DNA of 64,000 bases from Candidatus Oxydemutatoraceae bacterium (lineage in GTDB: Bacteria; Pseudomonadota; Gammaproteobacteria; Poriferisulfidales; Oxydemutatoraceae), in the NCBI GenBank assembly GCA_965220085.1, contig CBDCOZ010000003.1, forward strand, positions 32,001 to 96,000, given 5' to 3'. Position 1 is the stretch's first letter, and every line of letters starts with the position of its first letter. A program made the translations under genes and the position numbers. A model generated the notes under the pieces. The model had not been told where the DNA came from, ran no database searches, and was given only the letters and a program-made list of their open reading frames with translations. This document shows positions 17,316 to 58,308 of the stretch, in pieces.

Positions 17316-17347
17316 CGTCAGGCGAAAGGTATGGGATGGGGCCGGCT

Positions 17348-40004: not shown

Positions 40005-40419
40005 TCTTCGCCGCCCGAATGGCGGCAGCAAGTGCGCGAGCATCAATGATGAATTGCGGCAGGAGCGCCAGCGTCTTTTCAGCAAAATGAATACCGTAGT
40101 CATGGGCGGCGCTGTTGCGGTTGTCACGGTATTGCAACCAGCGTTCGCAAGCGGCGGCATCCAGCAGGTCGTGTTTGGCAACGTGACGGAAAATATCTCT
40201 AAAATTGTAGGCATCCGCTTGGCGATTGCTGGCAAAGTAATCAGCCAGACATTTACGCAATAACTTGCCGCTTTGCTCCAGAATAATTTCAAACTCTTTG
40301 ACGCAAGCGGCGCGATACACTTCGTAATCGATGGCATCCGGTGTGTTGTTGCGCAGTTGTTCCAGCGCCCTCTCCAGTGCGCGAATGCAACGCTCCGGAA
40401 AGCCAGTGTCTATACTCAT
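39997..40419 (-). CDS. HEPN toxin / nucleotidyltransferase substrate-binding protein
   Basis: KEFEIILEQSGKLL, RNSAAHDYG; start MSIDT at 40419. Confidence 0.85.
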   Translation of the reverse strand: MSIDTGFPERCIRALERALEQLRNNTPDAIDYEVYRAACVKEFEIILEQSGKLLRKCLADYFASNRQADAYNFRDIFRHVAKHDLLDAAACERWLQYRDNRNSAAHDYGIHFAEKTLALLPQFIIDARALAAAIRAAKND

Positions 40420-40524
40420 TAAACTTCGTAATCGATGGCATCCGGCGCGTTGTTGTTCAATTGTTCCAGCGCCCTCTCCAGTGCGCGAATGCAACGCTCC
40501 GGAAAGCCGATGTCTATACTCATT
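40319..40524. repeat. 104-bp-period tandem duplication of the HEPN gene 5' end
   Basis: 40319-40420 versus 40423-40524; the upstream copy ends in TAA overlapping the real ATG. Confidence 0.9.
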
Positions 40525-40600
40525 TTATATTGCCCGAGCGCGCAAGCCTTATTTTTTGGGGCTTATATCCGAATAGCCATTTTGGCTAGTATGGCAGCCC

Positions 40601-41095
40601 TTATTTTTTGTCGGGGTTGTAGTAGCCGGCGCCGAAGACATATCCGTCATGCAGCTTGATGAACGACCGCTTGGGGTCGTCTTTGCCGCTTGCCGGATTG
40701 AGGACGACATACTCGACCCAAACGCCTTCGGGGGTGGCGCTCTCTATCAGGGTCACTCCTTCGTCATTGCGGGTCTTTGCCAGAATGCTTATCGTGTTGA
40801 CGCGCTCCTTATAGGCGCCGTGTGCGACTCTCTTCCCCGTGCGGGGGTCAAGCACAAACGGGTAGCCTTTGTCCGCGCTGCTCAGATGCTTGGCGGTGAT
40901 TTTTGCAAACGCCTGTTCGCGACCTTCTGTGTCGTACAGGAGTATCGCCTGCTCCGTCAGGTCTTGCGCATTCTGTTCGCGCTCGGAGAGCGACACTTTG
41001 TTAATGGTCACAGCTATTAGAGCGGCGACGGCGACTAACAATATCAGACTGAAAAATTTTGTACCCATGCGACACATTCTAGCATCATCTGACAT
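40601..41095 (-). CDS. membrane-anchored single Cache domain protein
   Basis: N-terminal TM; YPFV...AHG...G.WVEY...NP..G...KRSF...FGAGYY. Confidence 0.85.
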   Translation of the reverse strand: MSDDARMCRMGTKFFSLILLVAVAALIAVTINKVSLSEREQNAQDLTEQAILLYDTEGREQAFAKITAKHLSSADKGYPFVLDPRTGKRVAHGAYKERVNTISILAKTRNDEGVTLIESATPEGVWVEYVVLNPASGKDDPKRSFIKLHDGYVFGAGYYNPDKK

Positions 41096-41139
41096 CGCTC
41101 CCCCTCGCGCCGTCTTAAAGCGCTTGGTTTCGGGGGGAT

Positions 41140-41520
41140 GCCGGAGATGACAAATGCCCGAAAAATGAATGCGTTCAATGGACGCTTTCGCCGCTTCTTC
41201 GGGAAGAGTCTGCGGAATTTGAAGAGGGTTTGTTGGGGGCCGAGTATGCGACATTCAATGATCGTCGGATATTAAACCATAACAGATACAGTGATAAGCG
41301 GCTGAGGTGGTAAGCGTCCATACTGGCTTTTATGCCGCGTTTCTCCCATAATGTAAGGGCTTCAAGTTTCTGTTAGGTCGTATGACTCATAGTTGCCTCC
41401 TGTAATGCAAAAGCAGCTATTTTATAGAGACCTCTGATGCCGTAGCCGATGTGTTGCTATTGCATGTCGGTTACGTTTTTTGTTGAAGTCAAGAATCCGG
41501 AATGTTTCTGGCATTATTCA
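41140..41520. mobile_element. rearranged IS481-like remnants (C-terminal fragment on +, left end and N-terminus on -)
   Basis: KMNAFNGRF...AEFEEGLL on the + strand; 41297-41520 repeats 3745-3968. Confidence 0.55.
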
Positions 41521-41675
41521 CCCATAAAAGGAATACCGTCAAATCATGAAGACGAAAAAGGAAGCAGCTGGGCCCAGATGACAAATTATCCGCAACTTCG
41601 CGCACAGGAATTGCGGGTAGCCACGCACCCTTCGGGTTACAAAGAAGCCGCTTTATCGGGGAGCATCGGGTGATG
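41521..41675 (+). repeat. diverged copy 1 of the priA upstream region
   Basis: aligns with 57754-57908 and 59068-59222. Confidence 0.9.
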
Positions 41676-41712
41676 CACACGACATAGCCCTTCGCCTGCA
41701 AAATAAAAGCGA

Positions 41713-44529
41713 TTATGCCGCAATACGCCCTTCGCCGTATTCGGCCAAGATATCCGACAAATCGGAAGGGCTAAACGACACCGCACAGTGCCAGCACCCA
41801 AAGCCACCGTGATTGGTAACAGCCTTGCACCATTCCCCCAGTTGTTTGCGCTTTTCTTGCTCCTGTCCGCTGTCTTGCCCTTTGACTTCCAGAACGAGAT
41901 AGTCGCCGTTGGTCAGGCGAATCAGAAAATCCGGGTAATACTTGCGAGTCGCGCCTCCATAACTATAGTTGATTACAAATCCCAAATGATCGTTCTTCAC
42001 AAACGACTCCACATAGTCGGATTTATCTAATTTATATGCCTCCGACGCTTCCCACCTGCTGTCATATACGCAATGGCTGATATGTGATTTGGCGGCAGAC
42101 TGACAGGGTTTGCGGGTATACCATGGCCTCATGTCGCCGGTAGAAAATATGGGGCGCTCCTGATTAACAACTACCGTCGGGTTGTCGTAGGTGCTGGCGT
42201 CCTTTATGTATCCCCATATATGATCAATGACTTCCCTGGTGTGCAACATAAGGAGCATCTTGCGACGGGATTCATCGCTACCCACATTGCCCTTGAAACT
42301 CAGGTACTCAGATCGGATGAAATGCTCTGCCAAAGGTATCAACTGGGACAGAAAACTATACGCACTGCCCTTCCAACTCTCATATTTCCGCTGTTCATAA
42401 ATGCTTCGGGCAATCTTGAATATTACGGTTTGCAGACGGGTGTTTTCAGCAATGTGCTCCATGTCTATGGCATCCCGCACGGCATCGTGTGGCTTGCCTG
42501 CCAGAATGACTTCCATATCCGCCTCGGTTATGGTTTTCAACGGGTCTATATTAAGGGGCTTAATCCGCTCCCAGTCCAGTTCCAGACTGGGCTTATATTC
42601 ATAGTCTATGCGCGCCACATTAGGCCATCTGATAGCGTGTTCCGCGCGCTCCGGCAGCGACTCAATACGTGTCGCGGGCTTTTCCGGAGGAGGCTCCTCG
42701 CCGCCCTCGTGAGGCAGAAAAGTAAAAGGCACACCGACAACACGCACATATTCCGACCTGAACATGCCGTTCTCCTCAACATCGTAACTGACCCGGCGCA
42801 ATCCTCGTCCCACTACTTGCTCGCATAACAGTTGGCTGCTGAATGCGCGCAGTCCCATTATGTGAGTCACATTCTTGGCATCCCAACCTTCGGATAGCAT
42901 GTTCACCGAGATGACATTACAAAGTTGTTCGCCCGGCTCGCCCAACTGCCCCACAGTGCCGACCTTGCGCCGCAGATATTCGGCTTGCTTGTCCTTGGTA
43001 AGCGTCTTATGGTTGTTGCCGGGCCCGTTTATCTCCGGCCTTTCATCGCGCCCCTCGGCATCCTTCATGGTTTTGCTATCTACTTGTAACAATCTGTCGG
43101 GATTGCACAGTTGCTCATTCACCATCATGTCCTGCCGCTCAAAAGCATTGTGAATACGCGCCGCCGTCTCTATGCTGTTGGCTACTGTGATCATGACCGG
43201 CGGCACCTTGCTGCCCGCCTCTTGCCATTGTTCAAATTTTTCCGACCAGTCAGACCCCAATAACTGGTAAGCGTTGCGCACCAGATCCGGCAACGGTTCG
43301 GTTTTATCCGCCTTGCGGTTGAGGTCTTCCTTCACTTCGGGTTCCTGATACAGATGGTACAGACGCGACTGGTCATCTTTGTTGAGTACGCTATCGTCTC
43401 TCGTAACCACTCTGGGAGTCTTGACCAGCCCCGATTCTATGGCGTCATTAAGGCCAAAATCAGACACTACCCACTCAAACAAGCTGTCCTCATCGGAGCG
43501 GTCGCCCGACGGTCTGAAAGGTGTGGCCGACAAATCAAAGCAACGCAGAATGCCGCGATGCCTATGGATTCTGTCCAGCCCATCGATCCACACCGTAGCC
43601 TCCTCGGCGCTGTCCTTGTCGCTTCCCAAACGTTTGTTTTTGCCTTTGGCCTTGGGGTTAACGCGCCAAGCATGGTGGGCCTCGTCGTTAATCACCAGCA
43701 GGTCTCCATCGTCGGGGGCGTATTTGCCCAGTACCTGTCGCACATAGACGGTGTCGCTTATCGCTTTGCGTTTGCGTTTGTCCACCGAACGCAACTGCCC
43801 CTTGGCAGCCTTGGCATTCAACTTATCCTGACTGTCCCAAGCCAACGCATGCCAATTATGAATCCGCAACTTGCCGCGGCGCAAACGCTCCATCATGGGC
43901 GGCGGCACTATGTTAAACGCTTCGTAATAGTTGTGCTCGTGGCTGGGATTGAGCACCTGCAGACGCTCCTTGATGGTAAGGCCGGGCGCTACAATCAAAG
44001 CGTGTTTGCCGAACCTGCTGTCCTTGGGATCGGTAACTTTGTTGAGAAAGTTCCAAGCAATAATCATCGCCATGACAATAGTCTTCCCCGTGCCCGTAGC
44101 CATCTTGCTGCATAGCCGTTCAAACTCGCTGCCATCTCCATTGAGACCTTCCCGCATGTCCGCGCCTTCTTGCGTTTCCACCAGCCAGATAAGCGTCTCT
44201 ATGGCTTCCAACTGACAGAAGAAAAAGCGATTCTCCCGCTCCTGATTGTCTTGCCAATGCTCAAGCAGTTTGCGAGTGATGATGGTGGCGCCGGCATATC
44301 GCGCCTCCCGCCAGACATCTACCTTCGTGCGAATAGTATTGACTGCCTTGATTGGCTTGAACTGCCCGGGGTCATCAAAGCCTTTGGCATTGGGCGTGGC
44401 TACCACATAGCCGGCATCTCGCCTGCCTGCCAGCAAGTTGAACTGTCGCCGCTCGCGATCGTATTGCCAGCGCTTTTGCGGCGCCTCGTACGGACTGTTT
44501 ACGATAAGTTTATCAATCTTGTCAGGCAT
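41713..44529 (-). CDS. res: type III restriction enzyme Res subunit
   Basis: KMATGTGKT, DEAHH, LSATP, EGWD, QVVGRGLR, C-terminal PD...EVKG nuclease; start MPDKID at 44529. Confidence 0.92.
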   Translation of the reverse strand: MPDKIDKLIVNSPYEAPQKRWQYDRERRQFNLLAGRRDAGYVVATPNAKGFDDPGQFKPIKAVNTIRTKVDVWREARYAGATIITRKLLEHWQDNQERENRFFFCQLEAIETLIWLVETQEGADMREGLNGDGSEFERLCSKMATGTGKTIVMAMIIAWNFLNKVTDPKDSRFGKHALIVAPGLTIKERLQVLNPSHEHNYYEAFNIVPPPMMERLRRGKLRIHNWHALAWDSQDKLNAKAAKGQLRSVDKRKRKAISDTVYVRQVLGKYAPDDGDLLVINDEAHHAWRVNPKAKGKNKRLGSDKDSAEEATVWIDGLDRIHRHRGILRCFDLSATPFRPSGDRSDEDSLFEWVVSDFGLNDAIESGLVKTPRVVTRDDSVLNKDDQSRLYHLYQEPEVKEDLNRKADKTEPLPDLVRNAYQLLGSDWSEKFEQWQEAGSKVPPVMITVANSIETAARIHNAFERQDMMVNEQLCNPDRLLQVDSKTMKDAEGRDERPEINGPGNNHKTLTKDKQAEYLRRKVGTVGQLGEPGEQLCNVISVNMLSEGWDAKNVTHIMGLRAFSSQLLCEQVVGRGLRRVSYDVEENGMFRSEYVRVVGVPFTFLPHEGGEEPPPEKPATRIESLPERAEHAIRWPNVARIDYEYKPSLELDWERIKPLNIDPLKTITEADMEVILAGKPHDAVRDAIDMEHIAENTRLQTVIFKIARSIYEQRKYESWKGSAYSFLSQLIPLAEHFIRSEYLSFKGNVGSDESRRKMLLMLHTREVIDHIWGYIKDASTYDNPTVVVNQERPIFSTGDMRPWYTRKPCQSAAKSHISHCVYDSRWEASEAYKLDKSDYVESFVKNDHLGFVINYSYGGATRKYYPDFLIRLTNGDYLVLEVKGQDSGQEQEKRKQLGEWCKAVTNHGGFGCWHCAVSFSPSDLSDILAEYGEGRIAA

Positions 44530-44533
44530 GCGA

Positions 44534-44911
44534 TTACCAAGGTGACCTTTGGAAAAAACGCCTATACCACGGGCGAGGCGTCCATACAATCTTACCCTTT
44601 TTGACCTGATAGTGGCTGCGGCATGGCAACTTGGGCAGGAATATGGAGGGTGAGAGACTCAGACTGCCATCCCGATGCTCATGAAAACGCCACTTGGGAT
44701 CGGCGTCCTCAAAGACATCCAAATACACCAGATGATCGCATTTGCGTTTTGGGCATTGCATAACAATCCGGTAGGGGTGCGACCGCCCGCCCACTACATA
44801 TATAGTGTCAGGAGACGGAACATCCGGCAAATCTTCCACCCACTCGGTCGCATAGCGTTTGCGCTTATGCCGGAACCGCTTGCGCGCCTTTTTGAACAAC
44901 CTTTTAGGCAT
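44534..44911 (-). CDS. DUF6527-like Cys/His protein
   Basis: CP..C...W......SLSPSI.....CRSHY....G.IVW pattern; coupled to the E1 gene. Confidence 0.72.
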   Translation of the reverse strand: MPKRLFKKARKRFRHKRKRYATEWVEDLPDVPSPDTIYVVGGRSHPYRIVMQCPKRKCDHLVYLDVFEDADPKWRFHEHRDGSLSLSPSIFLPKLPCRSHYQVKKGKIVWTPRPWYRRFFQRSPW

Positions 44912-46325
44912 TCTTGTTTTCGTCTGTAATACTTTGCAGTAACGGGCTGCTATCGCCCATCCCCGCATACTTGCCGAACAACTTGTCGGCTTGTCCGGGC
45001 TCCGCATGTCGGTTGCTGTAATAGCCTTGCACCAGTTGCATCTGTTGCACGGCAAAAGAGTCGTTGGCATCTAAGCGGAAGTCGTGCAAGCGCGCCATAA
45101 GATCATTGAAAGCCATGCAGGCAGCTTGCATATTCACGGAGATGACGGCTGGCTGGTCTTCGCCCACTGCTGTCAGATAACCCTCTTTCAGTTGTTTCCG
45201 GTAGTGTTTCGGGTCGGAACGATGCATATTCTCCGCCGCAATCTGCTCGCTGGCGTAGCCTCCTCTTGCCATCAGACTGGCATTGTCCGGGTGCATATAA
45301 TGCGCTACGGCTGTGGCTTGGGTCAGGCCGCCTTTGCCATCCGCCTCAAGGTGTACGCCAACATCAAAGTAAGGCAACCAACAGGCGGAAGCTATGCATT
45401 CCAGATGGTAGCGACCGCTGGCAGAATCCACGCAACCAAAGATGACATCGCAATCTATCAGCGCCCTCGCCACTTGCGGAGCGTATGTATCCGCTTGGTA
45501 CGCATCTACCTTGGCGCCTGTGCCCATGGCTTGCACAGCTTTTTTCAGCGCATCTACTTTGGGGGCGCTCTGACTTGCATCGCGGCTTTTGGCGTTTATG
45601 ATGCGATTCAGGTTCTTGGGTTCCACGCAATCCGGGTCTGCTATCACCAACTGCCCCACACAGTTTCGCGCCAACAGTTCAATGATGACGCTGCCGGTGC
45701 CGGAACACCCCACAACGCCTGCTCGCAATCGGCGCAAAAGCGCCAAGGTGTTTTTGCCGAATGTCTGGGCAACCCTCATACCGGACTCGACCGGTTGCGC
45801 CACCCGCTTTGCAGAGTGCCAGATTTTTATATCCTCGCCCACAACGGAAACCGTATCCAAGAGCGCACACTTTCCTTTGACATCAACCACACGCGCGATA
45901 ATCCTGCCATCCGGCAACATGATGGCGGAACCATTGGGCCGCCCGTCATCAAACCAGCGGCCCATCGAGCCAAACAACTTTCGATCATTTTCATTGTCAA
46001 TGTCGGAAAATTCTTCACAGCCTTTGGGATGGCTATGAATCGTCATGATTGAAAGTCCGCGCTTGTCTATGTCGCTAATCTTGTCGGCGGTCAAAAATTC
46101 AGTCACGGGCCAATCCACACGGATGGCTGTTCTATTGGAACAAGTATCGGCGGGTATGAGAATGCACTCGCAGGCCATCAGGCGCAGGCTCCGGGCGCCC
46201 GCCGCCCTGTGGCAGAGAATGATAGCGACAGATTCGCGATTATCCTCCGGGAAAAGGTGCTCCCGGAGTTGCCGATGTTGGCTTTGTGTCAGTGCCAAAG
46301 TGTGCGCATACTTGCCAGCCATCAC
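44904..46325 (-). CDS. JAB peptidase fused to a ThiF/E1-like enzyme
   Basis: E...HSHP.....FS.ID (JAB); GCSGTGS, D.D.VE..NLNR, GCVD (E1). Confidence 0.88.
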   Translation of the reverse strand: MMAGKYAHTLALTQSQHRQLREHLFPEDNRESVAIILCHRAAGARSLRLMACECILIPADTCSNRTAIRVDWPVTEFLTADKISDIDKRGLSIMTIHSHPKGCEEFSDIDNENDRKLFGSMGRWFDDGRPNGSAIMLPDGRIIARVVDVKGKCALLDTVSVVGEDIKIWHSAKRVAQPVESGMRVAQTFGKNTLALLRRLRAGVVGCSGTGSVIIELLARNCVGQLVIADPDCVEPKNLNRIINAKSRDASQSAPKVDALKKAVQAMGTGAKVDAYQADTYAPQVARALIDCDVIFGCVDSASGRYHLECIASACWLPYFDVGVHLEADGKGGLTQATAVAHYMHPDNASLMARGGYASEQIAAENMHRSDPKHYRKQLKEGYLTAVGEDQPAVISVNMQAACMAFNDLMARLHDFRLDANDSFAVQQMQLVQGYYSNRHAEPGQADKLFGKYAGMGDSSPLLQSITDENKNA

Positions 46326-46690
46326 CGTATCAGTTCATGTTGCAGAACATTTTTTATATATGCAAAGTGTGTGGCGACGCAATGTATGCCCGGCTTCCAT
46401 TCGTAGTGCCGCGACCATCGTTGCCAGTGCTGACTAAAGTGGCGCTCCTCTGTCAGGGCATCTATGTATTTTTCATCCTTGCGTCCAATCGGCGGGCACA
46501 GATAGAACATATCCAACGGGCTGGCAGGATAGTCGGCAGGAATGCGTATCATCAGATTGGTTTTATCCAGATTGTAGCCTTCGGGCAAAGAGTAATCGCG
46601 AATTAGCAGACCATCGCTATCACCGAGCACTTCCCACTGCCCTGAAAAATGCTTTTCCAGAAACCGTTTGTCATCGGGCACAAGCGCCAC
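46322..46690 (-). CDS. prokaryotic E2/UBC-like protein
   Basis: LPEGY...IP..YP...DMFY..P...WQRWSRH. Confidence 0.82.
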   Translation of the reverse strand: MALVPDDKRFLEKHFSGQWEVLGDSDGLLIRDYSLPEGYNLDKTNLMIRIPADYPASPLDMFYLCPPIGRKDEKYIDALTEERHFSQHWQRWSRHYEWKPGIHCVATHFAYIKNVLQHELIR

Positions 46691-46695
46691 CGATG

Positions 46696-47148
46696 TTACG
46701 CCCCTTGTTGCGCCTGTAAGGGCGCTGTCTCAAACCGGTCTAGTTCGGGATTCGTCAAATCTACTTCTTCATCTCCCGCAACAGGAATGCGTCGCCCGCT
46801 CTTCAACTTCTTGTTGAGAGACCACTCGCTGGTTTTCTTGTCGACCAGAGCCAGTATCCGCTCTCCGGTCATCGTCGTCTCCGCTACCGTAAACTCATCG
46901 CCGTCCACCTTGATGGTGATTTTCTTGTCGTCGGGACGTTGCGGCTTAGCCGATGCAGTCTTGAATGCTCTGTTGCCGGGGTCTTTCAAATCTATTTGCT
47001 CGTCTTTCCCCACAGGCACCGACTTGCCATCGCGCTCTAGGCTCAGAGACCACTCCGGGTAACTCTTGCCCGCTAGGTTTAGGATTTGCTCGCCGGTCAA
47101 GTGATCAGAATCTGCCGGATATTGTTTGCCATCAATCTGTATGTTCAA
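46696..47148 (-). CDS. multi-ubiquitin domain protein (two Ubl domains)
   Basis: two I.(I/V)DG......TGE.IL.L......W.L........V..DE..DL....F.T repeats; ends QQGA. Confidence 0.85.
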   Translation of the reverse strand: MNIQIDGKQYPADSDHLTGEQILNLAGKSYPEWSLSLERDGKSVPVGKDEQIDLKDPGNRAFKTASAKPQRPDDKKITIKVDGDEFTVAETTMTGERILALVDKKTSEWSLNKKLKSGRRIPVAGDEEVDLTNPELDRFETAPLQAQQGA

Positions 47149-47163
47149 CGTCTCATCCTCCTG

Positions 47164-47682
47164 TTAGTGTTTCTCAAGTTTTTTATGGGCCTCTTTTGAA
47201 GTCATCACATCCGCTTGCAACAAATCCATGCCCTCTGCCTTCGATTTTAACTTATCCCGATTGTTAATGATATGCTTTTCATCATTGCTAATAAGTATCC
47301 TGTCCTTGACGAATGCCACATATACAAATATCCGGTCAACCTCTTCTTTATTTTTATCTTGTTCTTCCGGAACTATAGCGCAGATGCCATTCCAAAGCAG
47401 GGAAGACTCATCCACAGTGACACACTCATGATTCTGAGGGTCCATCCAGAGTCGCAAAATGATTCTGTTGTCTATCGTAAGGCGTTCAATCTTTCGTTCT
47501 ATATGGTGTTTATATTCATGCCTTATAACACCCTCGTCGTCAATCAGTAGCAACACTTTCAAATCAACCAGACTTTTCAACAATTTATATATATGATTCT
47601 CTGTATTCATATTTTTGTTATGAATATGTCCGAAAACATTAGTGTCTACGGCTATGAAGTCAACGGTCACTGCTTCCTCCAT
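47164..47682 (-). CDS. PIN-like domain protein
   Basis: AVDTNV...E...D..F...A.....LISND. Confidence 0.6.
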   Translation of the reverse strand: MEEAVTVDFIAVDTNVFGHIHNKNMNTENHIYKLLKSLVDLKVLLLIDDEGVIRHEYKHHIERKIERLTIDNRIILRLWMDPQNHECVTVDESSLLWNGICAIVPEEQDKNKEEVDRIFVYVAFVKDRILISNDEKHIINNRDKLKSKAEGMDLLQADVMTSKEAHKKLEKH

Positions 47683-47684
47683 GG

Positions 47685-49067
47685 CTATGTAGTCATATCC
47701 ATGACTTCCCAGAAATCCTGATGAAAGAATTCTCTTGGCAAACCATCATCCAGTATGCCTTTCTCATTGATGTTCAGGTTTTTCACAGTGGTTTTATTAT
47801 TATCAGTAGCAAAATAGGCTACGGATATATCACGCCAGTCTAATTCCCCTTTGATAATCTTGTTACGCAAGCGCAACAACATGTTGGCACTGTGCGTCTC
47901 AATAATGGATGTCACCTTGCGCGTATTCCATAACTCAACGAAGAAGTTGGCCAAATTAAGTTGTGCGGTCGGGTGCAAGTTCGCTTCGGGCTCTTCAACC
48001 ATCAGGGTGGAGTAGGGATGCATAATCGCTCCCTGCACCAGAACAGGCAGAAGTTGATTTGTGCCGAAACCAAAATCTGCAATGTTGGTGCGAGCTCCAG
48101 TTTTCAGGTTGGTTGCCCGGCAGGCGGTCAATTCCTCCAGATGCTCATCGAAGGTGATATCGCTTACTCCCAAAATGTTCTCCAGATGACGGCTCACCAA
48201 ATCAAAAGCGTCCCGCCTGTCCTTGTATATCTTATACAGTTGGTGTAATGTCCATTTGCCCTCACTTCCTACTTCGCGATTAGGGCAAGAGGCATGCTTT
48301 GCAAACGCCCTCTCAAAGTATTCAATCTCTGGGCTTATATAAGATATATTGCCGACATCTTGAACTATAAGCCTGTTGCAGTGCTCTAACACCTTCACAT
48401 CATCTTTCAGTTCGCGCTCCATTGCTATGGCAAAGTTACCAAGCTTTTGGATGAGGGCTCCTATATCCTCCTTACCTGACCGGAAAGCTGGGCTAAATTT
48501 TTCAGTGAGCGTATTTATGTCATCTTTCAGTTTGCGCTCGTTAGCATCTGACAAAACACTAGCCAAATGAAACATTCTCAGATTATCAGTTATTTCATTT
48601 TCATACGGGGTTACGCAGCCCTTGTCATGCTCTATGCCCAGCGCTACCTTTCCTCTGGATGCTCGGTCTTTGGCATAATACACACTGGCATTCAGAACAT
48701 AGTTGATTTTTTTGTTTTGCACACCTTTCTGCGATACTTCTTGCTTGCGGCGGATCTGTTCCAAATAACGCTTAACAATATCTCCGGGACTGTCCGCGTC
48801 CTTAAACTTGACGCCAAACTTCAGGTGATCCCCCTTAGTTCGCACATTCTTTTGCGCATAGAGTGATGGCAGTTTTATGGCATCGCCGGATGTTGCCAGA
48901 AATTCCAGACTCGCCGGGTTACACGACTGCTTGAGCATCAGCAGGAGTTTCATCACTGATGACTTGCTGGAATTGTTACGACCTATCAACAGGGTAATCG
49001 GCTTCAAGCGAATTGTCACCTCATCGCTAAACCCTCGGAAGTTGGCTATTTTAAGTTCGGTCAACAT
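47685..49067 (-). CDS. ABC-type (AAA_21/DUF3696-like) ATPase
   Basis: NFRGF, GRNNSSKS (atypical Walker A), GFGTNQ, EEPEANLHP, ETHS. Confidence 0.85.
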   Translation of the reverse strand: MLTELKIANFRGFSDEVTIRLKPITLLIGRNNSSKSSVMKLLLMLKQSCNPASLEFLATSGDAIKLPSLYAQKNVRTKGDHLKFGVKFKDADSPGDIVKRYLEQIRRKQEVSQKGVQNKKINYVLNASVYYAKDRASRGKVALGIEHDKGCVTPYENEITDNLRMFHLASVLSDANERKLKDDINTLTEKFSPAFRSGKEDIGALIQKLGNFAIAMERELKDDVKVLEHCNRLIVQDVGNISYISPEIEYFERAFAKHASCPNREVGSEGKWTLHQLYKIYKDRRDAFDLVSRHLENILGVSDITFDEHLEELTACRATNLKTGARTNIADFGFGTNQLLPVLVQGAIMHPYSTLMVEEPEANLHPTAQLNLANFFVELWNTRKVTSIIETHSANMLLRLRNKIIKGELDWRDISVAYFATDNNKTTVKNLNINEKGILDDGLPREFFHQDFWEVMDMTT

Positions 49068-49077
49068 TGGGCTCCCC

Positions 49078-49332
49078 CTATTTGTACAGCGGAATGATGC
49101 GCAACGATTCTATGTCGCGCTTGTCTATAATCTTAATGGCTCTGCGCTCGTGTAACTGCCCGAAGTCATCAAAGCCTTTGGCATTGGGCGTGGCTACCAC
49201 ACAGCCGGCATCTCGCCTGCCTGCCGACAAGTTGGACTGCCGTTGCTCGCAATCGTATTGCCAGTGCTTTTGCGTCGCCTCGTGCGGACTGTTTACGATG
49301 AGCTTGTTAATCTTGTCAGGCATATATTTCAT
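49078..49332 (-). pseudogene. chimeric scar: Res N-terminus fused to Mod C-terminus
   Basis: first ~56 aa copy Res (MPDKI.KLIVNSP...GFDD.GQ); last ~25 aa copy the Mod end (ER.A.KIID.R.IESLR.IPL). Confidence 0.88.
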
Positions 49333-51713
49333 TAGGCCCTTATTTGCTCTCGCGCTCTGAGTCTGGCCTGAACCTGTGAATATAACTGCACTCCCTCGTT
49401 TTGACGATCACGGAGGCTGATAACCAAAGCATATTTTTCTTTATTGCCACAAAGATTCTCTCCCCATGGAAAATCATTGCGGGTCACTACTACAAAAACT
49501 TTTTCCCGCTTGATTTTAGATCTGCCATCAATCCTTCTGAATTTCCAGACATCTGCTTGTGCTGTTCCTTTGCTACGTGCAACTCGCCCAACTTTAGCCC
49601 CGTCTAGCTCTGGGATATTTTCATATTCATCGTCATCTGTTGCCTTGTTAAACATGGCAGTTACGCGGTCTAGGCTATCGGCTGTGACCAGACGAAAATC
49701 AATGCGCGTAGCGCGATATTTAATTCTCGTAGAGCGAACGGCAGGCGTATAAGCCAATGCAACTGCAATTTCTCTGTCACAACTCCCGGTAATGATAAAG
49801 TCATCAGGCACAGGCACTTCATAGAAATGGTGCTTTTTATTCTCAATTGCCTCACCGGATATGAGAGTGACCGCAGTCTGCAAAGAGCGATACAGTGTGG
49901 TTGAGTCCACCTTGCCATAACCGCAAACCCTTCTAAAATCTTTGTCATCATCAAATAATTCCGGACTTATCTCAGGCAATCTCGCATTTGTGCAAAGAAG
50001 GGCTCTAATCATATTGTGACTTATTTCTGAATCCTCTCTTAGGATGGAGGAAGCCAAATGTGCCACTTGGGGTGCGGCCATGCTTGTGCCCATACCCAGA
50101 TCAAAGAGACGACCCTCTGCGAATTTATAACTGGTGGAAACAACTCCTAACCCTGTATTGGTGCCGGTAGATAACGGCATGTTATCGGCGCGCACATTTG
50201 ATGCCCAATTACCGCCATAGGCCATCAGCTCAGGCTTGATGGCGTCATCCACAGAAGGGCCACATCTGGTAAACGGAGAAGGTTCATCGTGTCGTGCAAT
50301 TGGCCTTTCAGCAGGGTCGCTTGGCCAGTTTTGACTGCCATAGGTAACATCATGTTGCGCCAAGCTACCCACAGTCAGCACATTCAATGCCGGGGCAGGT
50401 TCAATAATCCGCGAATTGTCATCTAATAGGTACTTTGGATAGTCCTCTTTCCACTGAATGCCCTTCGGGGAATCAGCATTAATCCTAAGATTCCCTGCGG
50501 ATACTACAAACAATATCCCTAATTCTCGAGAAAGAGAATCCAGCGCCACCGAAAGACCTTTTAAGTGACCTCCCAGATATGGCTTATTTGTGTCTCCAAG
50601 AGACAGGTTAAAAACTCGACATCCATACTCCTTCACGAAGTAGCGCACCGCTTTATCAATACGGTTCTCCATAAACTCTTCGGCATAGGTATTGTCTTTG
50701 TCCAGAATGCGACCACTAAACAAGCGTAAGGCAGGAATAAATTCACGGCTTCTTATGTTGTCTTCAATACCCTCTCCATATAAGGCCAACCCTGCAACAA
50801 GAGTTCCATGACCGTGCTCATCTATCGCTTCTTCTCCGGGCAGAAAGCTTTGGGCATCACCCACCGCATCACCTAACAAAGGGTGCCCGGTTGCCAACCC
50901 ACTATCCAAAACAACCACCCCCGGAGCAGATTCATCCGGCATGGGAACCTTGGGATAGTCTTGTATGTCTTGATGTAAAAGTGTGCGTTCCAGTTCAAAG
51001 CTGGGCGGCAAGTCAACATAGCGCACATCGCGGTGATTAAGGAGATGTTGTGCCTGCTCGGCATCACAACAAACACGGTAGATAGTCAGTGTCTGTTGCT
51101 TGACACTATCTTTTACTGTTATGCCGGCCTCGGTTAGCCATTGTTCAAACATCCGCCGTTCCTCTTCGTGTTGATTATTATTTTCTAACGGCCAAAGTTC
51201 TATATCAAGCAAAAATGCTTCTTGTTTCGGAAGCCCGTACTTCTTCAGAGCCCATCCTTTGCGATCTTCGGGTTGTAAGGCATCAAGATTCTGCAGGGCA
51301 TAAAAAATATTTTGATTGGTAACCTTACCACCCTCAGCCATGGTAGACAGGCAGGCTTCAAATTCTGCAAGGCCGTTCTCACTCGCAAACCCTATTACGA
51401 CTTCTTGTTCTTCTTGGCTTACAAACTCAATCCCCAAAACGCCTCTCTGTTGTGATGCCACTTTCCTTAGATCATCCGGATCAAAACCTTTCTGCACAGT
51501 GAACTTAAATATTTTACGATTATCAAAACCGCCAATATTGTTATCAGCCTGATCTCTGGCAGCACGAAGATTTTCTAACAACTTGCGGCCATGGCCCCTA
51601 ATATCCTCGGGTGGAGTTCGGCGAGGGCCAGGTCCTGATCTCTTTTGAGTGACCGGTTTCTCCTTGCTTATATTCAGATGAATAAAAGATTCGGGTTCAA
51701 ATAATTGAGCCAT
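49332..51713 (-). CDS. S8 subtilisin-like protease (IetS-like)
   Basis: triad LDSG, HGHGT, GTSMAAP; paired with an AAA ATPase. Confidence 0.9.
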   Translation of the reverse strand: MAQLFEPESFIHLNISKEKPVTQKRSGPGPRRTPPEDIRGHGRKLLENLRAARDQADNNIGGFDNRKIFKFTVQKGFDPDDLRKVASQQRGVLGIEFVSQEEQEVVIGFASENGLAEFEACLSTMAEGGKVTNQNIFYALQNLDALQPEDRKGWALKKYGLPKQEAFLLDIELWPLENNNQHEEERRMFEQWLTEAGITVKDSVKQQTLTIYRVCCDAEQAQHLLNHRDVRYVDLPPSFELERTLLHQDIQDYPKVPMPDESAPGVVVLDSGLATGHPLLGDAVGDAQSFLPGEEAIDEHGHGTLVAGLALYGEGIEDNIRSREFIPALRLFSGRILDKDNTYAEEFMENRIDKAVRYFVKEYGCRVFNLSLGDTNKPYLGGHLKGLSVALDSLSRELGILFVVSAGNLRINADSPKGIQWKEDYPKYLLDDNSRIIEPAPALNVLTVGSLAQHDVTYGSQNWPSDPAERPIARHDEPSPFTRCGPSVDDAIKPELMAYGGNWASNVRADNMPLSTGTNTGLGVVSTSYKFAEGRLFDLGMGTSMAAPQVAHLASSILREDSEISHNMIRALLCTNARLPEISPELFDDDKDFRRVCGYGKVDSTTLYRSLQTAVTLISGEAIENKKHHFYEVPVPDDFIITGSCDREIAVALAYTPAVRSTRIKYRATRIDFRLVTADSLDRVTAMFNKATDDDEYENIPELDGAKVGRVARSKGTAQADVWKFRRIDGRSKIKREKVFVVVTRNDFPWGENLCGNKEKYALVISLRDRQNEGVQLYSQVQARLRAREQIRA

Positions 51714-51718
51714 GCGGA

Positions 51719-52714
51719 TTAGTCTCTTTTATACGGCATATTGCGAGACTTCTCTCTGTGAATAGCTGTTCTGATATGCCTTTCATTGAGGCGCTCCATT
51801 CCCGACAGTACCATATCTTTCGCGGCACGGCGTATGACTCTTTCAACATCGGCATGACTCATGCCATCAAACAAGTTGACAACACCGGTATCTTCAATTT
51901 CAAAGCTCCGGCGCAGACCGCGAAGTTTGATACTAAGAAGTTTCAATAATTGCTCTGTGTTCGGAGTTTCAAAAACCAACACCTCGTCAAAACGACGCCA
52001 CATCGCGCTGTCCAACATCTGTTCATGGTTAGTGGCGGCGACGATAATGCTCTTGCCATCATAATCATCCAGCATCTGAAGAAAGGCATTCACCGCTCTC
52101 TTGAGCTCGCCGTGTTCAGATTTTTCCGCTCTCTCTTTGGCAAGCGCATCAAACTCATCAAACAGGGCAACCACGGGTATGGTCGATATAAAGTCAAATA
52201 TCTGACGAAGGTTTGAGGCGGTCTCGCCCAAAAATGAAGAGATTACGCTATCTATCCTGATGACTGCCAAAGGCAAGTTGATTTCACTGGCCAGCACCTC
52301 GGCGGTCAGGGTTTTGCCACACCCGGGAGGACCGCAAAACAGTACTTTGTCTACAGGGAACAGTCCGTAACTTCCCAACAAATCTGCGCGATTGTGTTCC
52401 CGTATAACCTCCTGTACTGTAGAGCAGTTATCTTCGGTCAACACCACATCTTCCATACGCCTTTCGGGTTCCTTGATTTGCACCAAAGGCAACTTCTTTT
52501 CCTTGTCATACGGAATATGTTTGTCGAGCATTGAACTTAAAGGTGTTGCGGAGCTTCTGCGCCCATAAAGAATTTTTTCAAGATCGTTTGCCAACAAATG
52601 ATGTTTTTTAGCGCGCTCTTCCTCAATTAACTGTTCGGAAGCGCGCTTAAAGGCATCATAGTCGCCTTCCGCTCCCGTTTTGATAAGTTGCCTGAGTAAG
52701 CTAGCTGTGGCCAT
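51719..52714 (-). CDS. AAA+ ATPase (IetA-like)
   Basis: GPPGCGKT, FDEFD, ATNH..LD.A.WRRFD. Confidence 0.9.
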   Translation of the reverse strand: MATASLLRQLIKTGAEGDYDAFKRASEQLIEEERAKKHHLLANDLEKILYGRRSSATPLSSMLDKHIPYDKEKKLPLVQIKEPERRMEDVVLTEDNCSTVQEVIREHNRADLLGSYGLFPVDKVLFCGPPGCGKTLTAEVLASEINLPLAVIRIDSVISSFLGETASNLRQIFDFISTIPVVALFDEFDALAKERAEKSEHGELKRAVNAFLQMLDDYDGKSIIVAATNHEQMLDSAMWRRFDEVLVFETPNTEQLLKLLSIKLRGLRRSFEIEDTGVVNLFDGMSHADVERVIRRAAKDMVLSGMERLNERHIRTAIHREKSRNMPYKRD

Positions 52715-52725
52715 GACTACCTTCC

Positions 52726-55395
52726 CTAATTCTGCCGGCTGGGTACTTTGAGGGGGATAACGCGCAGCGATTCTATGCCGCGGTTGTCGATGATCTTAAC
52801 GGCAATGCGCTCGTAGTCACCCATGTGAAAAGGAATGGACTGGGTGCCGTGGTAGTAGTCCATCAGGTCTTCGTCTATGTTAGCGCGCAGGGCCTTAGCC
52901 AGACGGTTCCAGCCGTGCTTGGGGTCATTCTCCTTGTGGTCGGGGCAGGGGAAGAAGACCTGACGGGGGTATAGGCTGCGGCCGTCGTAGTCGGTGTCCA
53001 ACATCCAAACGGTTATGTCGGATTCATCGCCGGAGGTGAGTTCGCCGGTCTTGGTATCAAAGTAATCAAAGCCGTGCACGGCGACCTGCCACTTGCCTGT
53101 GTGGGGGCCGCTACGCAACAGGTGCAAGCGCACATCGGGTTGTCCGACAAGCCAGAAGCTGTCGCTGCCGGCCTGCTTTTTCTTCAGGTCGTGGGTTTGC
53201 ATATCGGTGTTCATCTGCGCCTTCAGCAGTTGCACGCCGGGCCAATCCGTCTCGTCTATGTCCTTAGCGGCCTCCGGGTCAAACTGGAATGCGGCAAAAA
53301 CGATGAGGTCGGGTTTGGGACGCATCTTCTCCGCCTCCTGTATGGCACTTTCCACCTGACGCGGATCCATCGGGGCGTGTTCGGGACCGAAACTTATCAT
53401 AACCCGTTGCGGTTGAGTGGCAGTATCGGACTCGCGTACCTGTCTTGTGCCGGAATCGTCAGGCCGAGTGGTGGCCTCGGCATGCAGGTAGCGGGTACCG
53501 GACATCGGTTCTATGTCGGCAAAACTGATGCGTTGGTTTTTCTTGCCGCGAATGCCGGACTTCAGTAGTTCGTCTCGCCATTCGGCATGGCGCACAGTCG
53601 CACCGCTACGGGCTATGGAGCGGTCGGCCTCGGGTGCGGTAGCGTCTACCCCTTTAGATTCCGTATCGCCCTTGGCATCACCTAAGGGCATCACCATCGG
53701 AGAGGGCACCGCCTCTACAGTAAAAGGCCCGGTCACCCGTGCACGCTTGCGGTCTGTCAGAGGCTGGTCGTAAATCAATGTCTCGGTGGTCGCGCCCTGT
53801 GCCAGCGTCTTGGGGGATACGGTGGCGACTGTCTTGTACTGCAAGCCGCCGCCAATACCCGTATCCTCATCAGCCAATTTGTAATAGTCAAAGGTTGCGG
53901 TCATCAGCCGTTGCTTGGCCAGTGCCAACGCCACGCGCGAGGTATCGCAGGTAATCCAGCGCCGTCCCCATTGCTCGGCGACAAGCGCCGAGGTGCCGCT
54001 GCCGCAAGTGATGTCCAACACCAGATCGCCGGGGTCGGTGCTCATCAGCAGGCAACGCTGTATGGCTTTTACGGCGGTTTCCACCACATAGCGCTTATCG
54101 CCGGGATACATCTGTGCGGGCCAGATATTGTTGATGCGCCGCCCAGGCACTTCATCCTCATATCGTTTCCACCTCAGCGAATTCTGACCTTCCAACGCTT
54201 CCAGCCTGCCTAAGGTTGCCAGGCGGTCCAAGTCCTCGTGGGATATCGACCAATGCCGGTTTTTGCCACAGGGAAAAGTCCTGCCATTCCACTCATATGG
54301 CTCTGAGCGTCCAGTGCCCGAAACACCTTGAGCATCCAGTCCTGTTCGCTGGTATATTCTCGCCTCTTCCGGAAGATGTTTATCGGGATCTATACGCTCT
54401 TTGCTATCCGGCTTGCGACATTTCCCGTCGGGCATTTCCACCATCACATCCCAATTAAAAAGATCTATCACTTCAGCACGGGTCAGTTGCTCATACAACT
54501 GGCGGTACTTGACCTGCTTTTTGTCTTTGGCATACCAGAGCAGATAGTCCGCCACTTCCGGCAGAGTTTTGGATGAGCTGCCGCTGGTGGTGGCAAAAGA
54601 GATAGTGGCGATGCAATTCTCAGCGCCGAATATTTCATCCAGCACCATGCTGACACGATGCACATTCTCATCGCCAATCTGCACGAAGATGCTGCCGCTG
54701 TCGGCCAGCAGTTCGCGCGCCAGCAGCAGGCGGTCGCGCATGTACGACAAGTAGGAATGGATGCCCAACTCCCAAGTATCGCGGAACGCCTTGATCATCT
54801 CCGGCTCGGAAGTCAGGTCTTCGTCCTTGCCGTCGGTGGCTTCGCGCTGGTCGACAAAAGGCTGGAAGTTGCTCTGGTATTTGATGCCGTACGGCGGGTC
54901 AAAATAAACCATCTGCACCTTGCCGCCCATGCTCTCTTTTTGTAACAGCGAGTTCATCACTAACAAACTATCGCCCGCCACAAAGCGGTTGCTCCAGCCG
55001 TCCTTGTGCTTGTAGAAATCCACTGCTTCGCGTAGCGGTCTGCGTTCCGCGAACATTTCAGTCTGTGCATCGCCATCGGACAGGCGCTTAGCCTGATTGA
55101 TGATGGTTCTGGGGTCTATGCGCTCATGCACATGCAAGCTGACTGTCTGCACATCAAAACTGGTGCGCTCGGCCTTACCCGCCCATTGCAGGGCCGGGTC
55201 AAGGTGCGGGTCGTAGCGGTAGGTCTGCTTCTCGTCCTTGTATGGGTCTGTGTCGGGACTGACTAATCCGGCTTGCGGAATGTTGGCGCGTTGCTCAGTG
55301 TTATGAACATACTGCCCGACCGCCGCCTTGCCCGTCTTGTCCGCCTTTGTCCGACCGCGCCCGGTAGGTTTCGCTTTGGTCGTTTTCTCTGCCAT
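52726..55395 (-). CDS. mod: type III R-M methyltransferase Mod subunit
   Basis: FDPPYG, DITCGSGT; same strand as and upstream of res. Confidence 0.92.
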   Translation of the reverse strand: MAEKTTKAKPTGRGRTKADKTGKAAVGQYVHNTEQRANIPQAGLVSPDTDPYKDEKQTYRYDPHLDPALQWAGKAERTSFDVQTVSLHVHERIDPRTIINQAKRLSDGDAQTEMFAERRPLREAVDFYKHKDGWSNRFVAGDSLLVMNSLLQKESMGGKVQMVYFDPPYGIKYQSNFQPFVDQREATDGKDEDLTSEPEMIKAFRDTWELGIHSYLSYMRDRLLLARELLADSGSIFVQIGDENVHRVSMVLDEIFGAENCIATISFATTSGSSSKTLPEVADYLLWYAKDKKQVKYRQLYEQLTRAEVIDLFNWDVMVEMPDGKCRKPDSKERIDPDKHLPEEARIYQRTGLDAQGVSGTGRSEPYEWNGRTFPCGKNRHWSISHEDLDRLATLGRLEALEGQNSLRWKRYEDEVPGRRINNIWPAQMYPGDKRYVVETAVKAIQRCLLMSTDPGDLVLDITCGSGTSALVAEQWGRRWITCDTSRVALALAKQRLMTATFDYYKLADEDTGIGGGLQYKTVATVSPKTLAQGATTETLIYDQPLTDRKRARVTGPFTVEAVPSPMVMPLGDAKGDTESKGVDATAPEADRSIARSGATVRHAEWRDELLKSGIRGKKNQRISFADIEPMSGTRYLHAEATTRPDDSGTRQVRESDTATQPQRVMISFGPEHAPMDPRQVESAIQEAEKMRPKPDLIVFAAFQFDPEAAKDIDETDWPGVQLLKAQMNTDMQTHDLKKKQAGSDSFWLVGQPDVRLHLLRSGPHTGKWQVAVHGFDYFDTKTGELTSGDESDITVWMLDTDYDGRSLYPRQVFFPCPDHKENDPKHGWNRLAKALRANIDEDLMDYYHGTQSIPFHMGDYERIAVKIIDNRGIESLRVIPLKVPSRQN

Positions 55396-55631
55396 GGGGG
55401 TTTGGTGCCTCGCCTGAAAAGTCCCATATTATCAAAAACGGTACGCTAATACTATGTTCAGGGTGCGCTTTTTGATTTAAGGAGATGGTTTGGATTACGG
55501 CATCTTGAGCAGTCGTCGCCAAAGTTCTGATGCTTTTTGCGGCGAGCCATGTTCTCTTCATATGTTGCCCGTGATATTTCGGCGTATCGCGGTATCGCCC
55601 CGGCCGCTCTGCCTCTGCGCGGCATGACTCG

Positions 55632-56204
55632 TCATCTCGCCAGACCGAGCGCTTCGAGCAGTATGGCAAGGTCGGGATTCAGGGGACTCTTTGCGGCTCT
55701 GCATACATCTGCAAGCGTTATGCGTTTTTTCAAGTCCATGGCTGCCATTCCCTTTTTGTATTTAGGCCACACCTTCTCCAGACATTTCAATGCTTCCTCG
55801 CTTGTCGGAGGATCATCATTTTCATGATCTTTGAAATGGCGCAAAAGAACCGACTCAAAACATGTGTCTTGCCAAATCAAGATTAGTTCATCCTTTTCGG
55901 CAATGCGTTGCGCCTCTTTTTTGTGGTTGGCATTCGTAAGCTGATCCGTATCCAGCAACAGGAATCTGCCTTTGGAGGAACTTTCCTTCTTGTCGCGTTC
56001 AATACTCCCAATGGTTAGCACGGCCTTGTTAACCAGTTGCATAGGGTCACCGTATGTGTCCATTACTTTGGCAAGAATATGGATGTGTAACTCGTCGTCA
56101 CTATCAGCAAATTTTTGTAGCAGGGCAACATAGCCTTGTTCGCTTTTCCCTTCACAGGCGACAAAGAAGACCTTGCGGCGGGGAACTATTGGGTGCCTAG
56201 TCAT
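55632..56204 (-). CDS. RloB-like protein
   Basis: VACEGKSE..Y, LLDTD, CFE..LL.HF, YKK. Confidence 0.8.
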   Translation of the reverse strand: MTRHPIVPRRKVFFVACEGKSEQGYVALLQKFADSDDELHIHILAKVMDTYGDPMQLVNKAVLTIGSIERDKKESSSKGRFLLLDTDQLTNANHKKEAQRIAEKDELILIWQDTCFESVLLRHFKDHENDDPPTSEEALKCLEKVWPKYKKGMAAMDLKKRITLADVCRAAKSPLNPDLAILLEALGLAR

Positions 56205-57427: not shown

Positions 57428-57613
57428 GATTATCCTCCATAGGACGTATATTATTGCGCTATAGTATCACTTCCAACTATATTTCGTCAAACATAGGATT
57501 ATATGAAACTAAACAGCCATATAAAACCGCATATTCCCCGTCACCGCATCCCGGACATGTCCCCGGTGTAGCCTGTAGCGGGGAGATACCACCGCAAGCG
57601 GGGGGCATAAAAC

Positions 57614-57935: not shown

Positions 57936-58159
57936 ACTTGCGCATCAATGCAATCAATACCATATATCGCATGTCCATTCATCAAAGTCACCGTAGAACT
58001 TGCCACTGCTATCGCTTCGTTATGTGTTCCGTGTATTCAGGAAACACTTTGACAATTATTCATGTGCGACGCGGTGTTTTGCGGCACGTGATAGAATGCA
58101 GAGCTTACAGAGCCTTTGCCACTTTTTATGCTTGGTCCGTATAAACCGCTCACAGATAA

Positions 58160-58292: not shown

Positions 58293-58308
58293 GAGACAAG
58301 GTTATTAA

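Follow-up and report, generated by a model that had tools for sequence, protein, structure and literature searches.

Two predicted defence cassettes between mod and res of a Type III restriction-modification operon, separated by a res′/′mod relic

The locus described here is a Type III restriction-modification (R-M) operon in a 64,000-nucleotide stretch of DNA from a Candidatus Oxydemutatoraceae bacterium (assembly GCA_965220085.1, contig CBDCOZ010000003.1, positions 32,001 to 96,000 of the forward strand), referred to below as the window. Thirteen minus-strand genes, all co-oriented, occupy 41.7-57.4 kb of the window. Among them, the methyltransferase gene mod and the restriction gene res are separated by two cassettes of predicted defence genes, and between the cassettes lies an 84-codon open reading frame (ORF) in which the start of res is fused to the end of mod. 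The best-supported reading of this arrangement is the stacking of two mod-[cassette]-res alleles.

The operon and its cargo

The minus-strand order is mod, IetA-IetS (cassette A), the 84-codon relic, the ABC-ATPase, PIN-like, multi-ubiquitin, E2, JAB-E1 and DUF6527 genes (cassette B), and finally res. Genes were named with Pfam and PADLOC, which bear out the order given in an earlier reading of the same letters (the original prediction). The features are as follows, with coordinates of the window, lengths in amino acids (aa) or nucleotides (nt), and expect values (E).

52726-55395, minus strand: mod, Type III DNA methyltransferase, 889 aa, intact (Pfam N6_N4_Mtase E=1.2e-30; PADLOC MTase_III E=1.4e-146)
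52751-52814, minus strand: 3′ end of mod, source copy of a repeat (direct repeat D3; longest identical run 10 nt)
51719-52714, minus strand: IetA, AAA ATPase, first gene of cassette A (PADLOC IetA E=1.8e-99; Pfam AAA E=2.6e-30)
49332-51713, minus strand: IetS, subtilase, second gene of cassette A (PADLOC IetS E=2.5e-250; Pfam Peptidase_S8 E=1.1e-36)
49078-49332, minus strand: res′/′mod join relic, 84-codon chimeric ORF (no Pfam or PADLOC family)
49154-49323, minus strand: res′ segment of the relic, corresponding to res codons 1-57 (153/170 nt shared with 44360-44529)
49088-49151, minus strand: ′mod part of the relic, final ~22 mod codons (52/64 nt identical to 52751-52814)
47685-49067, minus strand: ABC-type ATPase (AAA_15/AAA_21), first gene of cassette B (Pfam AAA_15 E=4.3e-27)
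47164-47682, minus strand: PIN-like partner of the ATPase, 172 aa (no Pfam or PADLOC match)
46696-47148, minus strand: multi-ubiquitin protein (Pfam Multi_ubiq E=5.3e-17)
46322-46690, minus strand: E2-like protein (Pfam Prok-E2_E E=1.5e-28)
44904-46325, minus strand: JAB deubiquitinase-like domain fused to E1 (Pfam ThiF E=4.3e-25, Prok-JAB E=1.5e-6)
44534-45070, minus strand: DUF6527 protein, final gene of cassette B (Pfam DUF6527 E=1.2e-12)
41713-44529, minus strand: res, Type III restriction subunit, 938 aa from the ATG at 44529, intact (Pfam ResIII E=3.7e-9; PADLOC REase_III E=6e-11)
44360-44529, minus strand: 5′ end of res, source copy of a repeat (direct repeat D1; longest identical run 37 nt)

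The mod gene is the sole copy of its family in the genome, and its stop lies 11 nt ahead of the IetA start. Cassette A, with IetA followed by IetS, has the gene content of an IetAS system, and its role in defence is predicted from that content. The res product is 49-63% identical over its full length to those of relatives; its RE_endonuc domain is below threshold (E=0.0086; score 16.3 bits, cut-off 23.4). From gene spacing, the whole is predicted to be a single Type III R-M operon with mod first and 8.2 kb of cargo before res, and promoter and terminator scans gave counts at the level of shuffled sequence (20 vs 19.3 and 24 vs 19.3).

Cassette B begins with an ATPase whose PADLOC matches to PDC-M55A (3.6e-44) and NsnB (4.8e-44) both rank above its match to HEC-03B (3.7e-32). 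The AlphaFold model of its 172-aa partner has a pLDDT of 92.6, the top Foldseek matches in the PDB are all PIN/VapC proteins and weak (best E=1.8e-3, TM-score 0.40-0.51), and four acidic positions are conserved (D13, E56, D116 and D134). Given this combination of a confident fold, uniform if weak matches and conserved acidic positions, the PIN label is plausible with moderate support, and the likeness of the ATPase and its partner to the published HEC-03 pair is reasonable but not proven. The ATPase-PIN label in the original prediction is likewise reasonable but not proven. The Multi_ubiq, Prok-E2_E, JAB plus ThiF, and DUF6527 families follow in one co-oriented run as a ubiquitin-like (Ubl) conjugation module. 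The DUF6527 stop lies 4 nt from the res ATG, and the true start of this gene is probably downstream of 45070, because its tblastn relatives align only from residue 73.

The relic between the cassettes is a chimera of the two genes that enclose the cargo. Its residues 4-60 correspond to Res residues 1-57, from the true start MPDKI (BLASTP 48/66, E=5e-30), and its residues 61-82 to Mod residues 861-882 (BLASTP 16/22, E=6e-8), the two parts sharing one reading frame. Protein and DNA alignments thereby uphold the earlier identification of 49332-49078 as a res start fused to a mod end. The homology to res starts precisely at the res ATG. The relic opens with an ATG that overlaps the stop codon of IetS, and it terminates 10 nt ahead of the ATPase ATG. 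Because the relic is a res start joined to a mod end, each cassette has a mod end on one side and a res start on the other, in line with the original proposal. Among direct repeats in 41000-58500, the res′ and ′mod matches rank first and third by size, and the same search found no cassette-border repeats other than these res and mod copies. Any microhomology at the join (GGGCAGTT / AC / ACGAGCGC) is masked by later substitutions. The relic is most likely non-coding debris, and its open frame may merely hand ribosomes from IetS to the ATPase gene.

The mod-res junction in related loci

Similar junctions were surveyed in one genome per species, at 78 loci with relatives of the window mod (41-70% identity) out of at least 580 such relatives. 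Five of these loci end too soon past mod to be judged and two have res upstream of mod, which leaves 71 that can be evaluated. The two genes are adjacent, 8-87 nt apart, at 25 of the 71 loci and are spaced by 160-215 nt at three more; at the other 43 (61%), the gap extends from 657 nt to ~14 kb (at two of these, res was reached only after the locus was extended). The inserted genes are fitted closely to the operon: 117 of 123 gap ORFs of at least 100 aa have the orientation of mod and res, the first inserted ORF starts a median of 2 nt past the mod stop, with a 4-nt overlap in 11/38, and the last inserted ORF lies a median of ~20 nt from res. Most of the inserted gene sets carry defence or toxin-antitoxin domains, and the 146 gap ORFs include a single transposase (IS66) and no integrase. 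With genes in 43 evaluable loci, the survey confirms that the mod-res junction of this Type III family is a hotspot for inserted genes, and the catalogue of intervening genes that the original prediction had called for upholds its view of the junction as a cassette hotspot.

The Pfam content of the slot recurs across phyla. An ABC ATPase with a PIN-like or PD-(D/E)xK-like partner is present at ~20 loci, and the partners fall into two separable families. The four-gene ubiquitin-like module is always found together with an ATPase pair. Other contents are IetAS, TIR, DUF6978 with DUF1828, an SMC-like ATPase with Schlafen/AlbA_2, an M78 peptidase with DUF4411, MNT/HepT, Uma2, Fic, PIN, NYN, an OLD-like ATPase and DUF5131, as well as the IS66 transposase already mentioned. 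Pfam and PADLOC give no defence annotation for DUF6978 with DUF1828, DUF6731, DUF5131 and several ORFs without a family. Across 14 loci, Mantel correlations were 0.38 for mod-res, 0.31 for mod-ATPase and 0.56 for res-ATPase, a weak linkage.

Cassette B is the sole occupant of the mod-res gap in seven relatives (L010, L039, L065, L088, L089, L090 and L091; loci of the survey are given L numbers, or G numbers where two pieces are treated together). The condition under which the stacking proposal was to be given up, that relatives never carry either cassette alone, therefore does not hold. The nearest mod is 68% identical, which sets this comparison above the strain level.

Several observations on the tenants and their host genes stand apart from the question of stacking. 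The multi-ubiquitin/E2/JAB-E1 module co-occurs with the ABC ATPase (+PIN) pair in all ten loci that have it (window 44534-49067, L010, L020, L039, L058, L065 and L088-L091), so that the pair and the module may constitute one six-gene system. A DUF6527 gene was found in nine of the ten; no such ORF was found in L020, where the pair and the module become neighbours only if the gene order is read as a circle. The second family of ATPase partners (L009, L011, L048, L014, L038, L036, L030 and L054) shows a 'CDYL...E.K' pattern and has the look of a PD-(D/E)xK nuclease, with no Pfam match.

The operon itself also varies. In L020 (4384-14342) it is circularly permuted, with the order Mubq-E2-E1-res-mod-ATPase-PIN amid housekeeping genes, and in L034 res lies directly upstream of mod. 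Three Mod C-terminal ends ~2.8 kb apart precede a single res in L015 (7673-13951), and two mod ends 4.3 kb apart precede res in L043 (8091-13125). The res gene appears truncated in three relatives: only the first ~117 codons are present in L082 (14007-14360) and ~333 codons in L021 (11210-12151), and the first ~83 codons are lacking in L060 (14015). Two Microcoleus loci, L019 and L067, share 94-96% identity over the operon, with two exceptions: a central stretch of mod of ~500 nt (10752-11260 in L019, 10746-11257 in L067), probably a swapped target-recognition region, and an indel of a Fic gene just ahead of res.

Recurring relics and the origin of the join

Profiles of the Mod C-terminus and the Res N-terminus were run over all loci and followed by DNA alignments. 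Relics were found at five loci besides the window, and at all six, the window included, there is one cassette on either side.

G003 (L058 continued in L087): res′ of ~110 codons and ′mod of ~25 codons; ATPase-PIN-Ubl-Schlafen, then IetA-IetS
G001 (L047/L094): res′ of ~29 codons, ′mod present; SMC-like-Schlafen-helicase, then an ATPase pair
L030: res′ of ~20 codons, ′mod of ~45 codons, 97% identical to its own mod end; cassettes on both sides
L011: res′ and ′mod present; ATPase-nuclease, then DUF6978-DUF1828
L048: res′ of ~34 codons, no ′mod; cassettes on both sides

Both parts are therefore present in G003, G001, L030 and L011, and res′ alone in L048. The remnants are short throughout (res′ ~20-110 of 938 codons, ′mod ~18-45 of 889), and their lengths differ from locus to locus. 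In G003 the two cassette types of the window occur in reverse order around the relic, with an IetA only 37.5% identical to that of the window, and res′ and ′mod lie in different frames with ~100 nt of unrelated sequence between them. The cassette types that flank the relics of L048 (L009-type; L064) and of G001 (L013/L084; L009-type) are each solitary in other loci. The joins are non-homologous, their end points vary by locus, and no recombinase travels with them.

In L011, with the order mod, ATPase-nuclease, relic, DUF6978-DUF1828 and res, both parents of the array can be recognised. Positions 9987-14651 (4.7 kb) are collinear with L009, a mod-ATPase-nuclease-res locus, at 78.7% identity, and the alignment continues into the start of the L009 res. 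Positions 14716-18816 (4.1 kb) are collinear at 72.9% with L016, a mod-DUF6978-DUF1828-res locus, in an alignment that begins ~60 nt ahead of the L016 mod stop. The join between the left and right units is sharp. The ′mod of L011 matches the L016 mod end at 44/59 positions and its own mod end at 37/58, and with the start of the next gene included the counts are 61/78 and 42/70, respectively. On these alignments, L011 reads as two single-cassette alleles fused from res′ to ′mod, which is the structure that the stacking model predicts.

On this reading, the mod-res junction is a docking slot for other defence modules. By analogy with L011, a mod-IetAS-res allele and a mod-[ATPase-PIN-Ubl system]-res allele would have been fused in the window by a non-homologous join, which left the first ~57 codons of res from the one and the final ~22 codons of mod from the other. 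The product would be what is seen, namely one full mod, one full res, both cassettes and a res′/′mod relic between them. No site-specific recombinase would be needed for the gain of a cassette, and cassettes would be inherited and exchanged via the conserved coding ends of the flanking mod and res. We consider this whole reading, slot and fusion together, probable. The recurrence of relics and the parents of L011 make the illegitimate res/mod crossover between two alleles, as first proposed, the best-supported account, and from them we infer that the window relic arose in the same way as that of L011, by whichever recombination path. The accompanying claim that cassettes accumulate without an integrase also holds up, with no integrase or transposase within 26-64 kb of the window and none of the 146 gap ORFs encoding an integrase.

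Candidate paths to such a join are one-ended homologous plus illegitimate recombination of incoming DNA, unequal crossover, and insertion of a circular unit with later loss of the inner res-mod pair. In the first of these, a long mod arm on the incoming fragment would lead to replacement of the resident cassette, and only donors with mod arms too short for homologous exchange would be joined illegitimately, which could explain the short ′mod remnants.

The divergence of the relics bears on whether the second allele was foreign. At five of the six relic loci, the exception being L048, the best DNA match of the relic is the resident res or mod; identities to the resident genes are 91.8% and 86.8% in G003, 97% in L030 and 90% for the res′ of L011. 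In G003, res′ differs from res by 12 synonymous and 8 non-synonymous changes, and the ratio of non-synonymous to synonymous divergence (pN/pS) is 0.19 (P=0.0003 against neutrality; P=0.016 against the ~0.55 expected of a freely decaying in-place copy). These differences are mainly synonymous, as would suit a second allele that was once functional. The window res′ differs from res by 5.5 synonymous and 12.5 non-synonymous changes (pN/pS 0.62, P=0.17), a neutral-like pattern.

A number of points weigh against the stacking of two alleles, either in the window or as a rule. Both parts of the window relic have their nearest match in the resident genes (res 89.6%, mod 81%), and a pN/pS of 0.62 is also the value of a freely decaying in-place duplicate and so does not discriminate; a foreign second allele is therefore not demonstrated for the window. 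The IetAS pair was not found as the sole cassette between mod and res in any of the 71 loci, and the four closest metagenomic IetAS loci (53-58% identity, from a scan with IetS) have no mod or res in the available flanks. Seven multi-module loci (L036, L014, L038, L054, L070, L067 and L044) have no relic at E<1, and L019 and L067 differ by a Fic gene without any relic; the res′/′mod join is thus one route of stacking and not the sole one. Finally, uniformly placed breakpoints would rarely yield such short remnants (rough estimates 2.6e-6 and 6.6e-6), and the two-allele model does not by itself predict them.

A rival explanation is that the junction was duplicated first. A tandem duplication of ~260 nt at an adjacent mod and res would give mod-res′-′mod-res, and the two slots would then be filled separately by homologous recombination via the short arms. 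Small duplications would produce short remnants at all six loci, and the window itself contains tandem duplications of 230 and 104 nt, a further point in disfavour of stacking. The window relic also suits this origin in being in frame, in keeping the res ATG, in stopping 10 nt before the next gene, and in its closeness to the resident genes and a pN/pS compatible with decay in place. No empty or half-filled relic was found in the 28 cassette-free loci or in the single-cassette loci, nor an empty one in the small-gap loci L063, L043, L015, L051 and L053. In L011, moreover, ′mod and the start of the next gene are nearer to the L016 allele than to the locus's own mod, in a right unit collinear with L016; the G003 res′ has diverged mostly synonymously; and a 64-nt arm that is 81% identical, its longest perfect match being 10 nt, offers homologous recombination little to work with. 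The structure of L011 and the lack of empty relics speak against duplication as the general route, and overall we consider it unlikely, though it may apply to the window.

It could also be that a circular mod-B-res unit integrated into mod-A-res to give mod-A-res-mod-B-res, from which most of the inner res and mod was later lost; this is one particular way of reaching the arrangement that the fusion of two alleles would give. The circular permutation of L020 and the res directly upstream of mod in L034 make circular units and intact res-to-mod junctions plausible, and the three tandem mod genes before one res in L015 and the two mod ends of L043 are in keeping with such rearrangements. Two complete units in tandem occur at none of the 78 loci, and deletions with random ends would not leave uniformly short remnants, so that this path in particular seems quite improbable. 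The suggestion that the 84-codon ORF is a functional small protein kept by selection (for example, a decoy or regulator built from the Res N-terminus and the Mod C-terminus) draws on its open in-frame fusion, its own ATG and its tight coupling to both neighbours, and is very hard to sustain against the neutral-like differences of res′, the different frames and ~100 nt of unrelated sequence in G003, the missing ′mod of L048, remnant lengths that vary at every locus and the lack of a Pfam or PADLOC family.

The diverged duplicate ends are repeats through which cassettes might be lost again, and the original prediction allowed for the looping out of either one. In principle, the res repeat, with its 37-nt identical run within 153/170 nt, would allow rare homologous deletion of ′mod and cassette B. 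Loss of IetAS through the mod repeat is unlikely, because no more than 10 nt in a row are identical there; only half of the loop-out proposal thus carries over. Three sequencing runs were consulted: X1 (99% of words, probably the source) and X2 (31%), both as assembled contigs, and X3 as raw Hi-C reads. Over 41000-56000, no loop-out joint between 44360-44529 and 49154-49323, or between 49088-49151 and 52751-52814, was present in the X1 and X2 contigs, a form in which rare variants are lost, or in four X3 Hi-C reads. The related strain in X2 carries the relic; its divergence is ~3% in mod-IetAS, against ~9% both at the relic/ATPase start and in res, and nothing from it aligned at 90% or more over 44507-47512. 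This difference in divergence hints that the two units of the window locus have separate histories.

Comparison with known arrays, and flanking features

Nesting of defence genes within defence operons is known from other hosts. According to the main text of Payne, Hughes, Fineran and Jackson (2024, bioRxiv 10.1101/2024.01.29.577857), defence systems are often embedded, and co-oriented (96.7%), within Hma, BREX, DISARM and Type I R-M systems; the commonest cargo is an ABC ATPase paired with PIN, NERD or TOPRIM, the ABC ATPase + PIN pair being HEC-03. The authors raise linked transfer and possible co-regulation, and leave the origin of embedding open under the term 'genomic sink'. That main text contains 'type III' only as 'DRT type III', and does not contain 'mod', 'res', 'recombination' or 'scar' (bioRxiv 10.1101/2024.01.29.577857). 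The loci surveyed here resemble those it describes in the co-oriented nesting of extra defence genes (117/123) and in the frequency of ATPase + PIN/nuclease pairs, and differ in that the host is a Type III mod-res operon and in the presence of join relics.

Individual cases of such nesting are also on record. In the part of the literature drawn on here, the PrrC anticodon nuclease lies in the Type Ic EcoprrI locus and is kept inactive by the Type I enzyme that it guards (PMC12707154), and TgvAB is a two-gene defence module nested in the Type I R-M cluster of VPI-2 in Vibrio cholerae and thought to be complementary to R-M (PMC11411939). PrrC is comparable to the present cargo as an ABC-ATPase-based second line of defence encoded within an R-M operon; unlike that cargo, which is known from its genes alone, it is a single protein held inactive by its host enzyme. 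TgvAB likewise is a module nested in an R-M operon, with a Type I host and one module, and no join relic or stacking in what is described of it, whereas the operon here is Type III and stacked, with a relic.

The closest likeness in the mode of assembly is found outside R-M. In arrays of type VI secretion system (T6SS) effector-immunity modules and of Rhs/contact-dependent inhibition (CDI) orphan modules, a module with one conserved flank is, by the sections of the account used here, added beside the resident, truncated 3′ remnants of the displaced gene persist, and one-ended homologous plus illegitimate recombination is proposed with no integrase (Kirchberger et al., 2017, PMC5361080), a process described in turn for transformation (PMC3240628). 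The truncated remnant of a flanking gene kept at the module join is common to both. In the T6SS/Rhs case, as far as that account goes, the old effector is displaced and immunity genes alone accumulate, whereas here both cassettes are complete and the debris is a fusion of host-operon genes. Integrons, too, accumulate co-oriented, promoterless cassettes at one site downstream of a fixed gene. The mod-res slot shares with them the co-oriented cassettes at a single site, and differs in having no integrase and no attC-like border repeat, its borders falling almost at the mod stop and the res start, a few nt away.

No account of embedding in a Type III mod-res operon or of res′/′mod relics was found in the literature searched, subscription journals and the supplements of Payne et al. 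lying outside that search. The comparison supports a division in which the nesting of defence genes is known, and the Type III host operon, together with unusually clear evidence of how an array was assembled, is new. Defence-in-defence nesting has recently been a productive route to new immune systems, with its origin so far open. Type III R-M joins the list of nesting hosts with 61% of sampled relatives occupied, and the mod-res gap can therefore be mined directly for candidate defence genes. The join relics and the parents of L011 offer a concrete, testable route by which defence arrays could form without the enzymes of mobile elements. Because the packing is tight and co-oriented, the arrangement suggests that the cargo shares the transcription and the horizontal transfer of the operon, which matters for how combinations of defences are inherited. 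Conceivably, the slot of this widespread family could be a general one that needs no recombinase, with modules moving between genomes via the mod and res coding ends as homology arms, arrays growing by joins, and a unit that can circularise (as in L020). The ATPase + PIN/nuclease pairs, its commonest tenants, would then be guardians rather than passengers, responding when the Type III enzyme is inhibited in the way that PrrC responds for a Type I enzyme; this wider scheme is tentative, and we would sooner doubt than assert it.

The surroundings of the operon are those of an island. Its G+C is 0.42-0.55 against ~0.60 in the flanks, which consist of housekeeping genes such as priA and argS. Directly upstream of mod is an AbiL pair (55632-57427):

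55632-56204, minus strand: AbiLii/RloB (Pfam/PADLOC)
56204-57427, minus strand: AbiLi (E=1.6e-67)

A repeat of 156-165 nt brackets the whole island from res to AbiL, at 41520-41675 and 57753-57908, with copies 79-87% identical. It has four copies in the genome: the third lies at 59057-59222, just before priA, and the fourth (L099 9762-9937) beside a TdeIII-type Type II R-M pair. A search of 40500-60500 against Rfam gave no match at E≤0.1, for this repeat or otherwise. The repeat may be a marker of defence-island borders. A Vsr-like endonuclease ORF (58309-58740) is situated between two of its copies. At 41480-41521 there is an element of ~41 nt with ~39 further genome copies, 85-95% identical, that resembles repetitive extragenic palindromes or miniature inverted-repeat transposable elements (REP- or MITE-like). 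The tandem duplications of the window are at 30470-30938 (230 nt x2, 97%) and 40319-40524 (104 nt x2, 93%), and an array of 24 units of 102 nt occupies 24554-27001.

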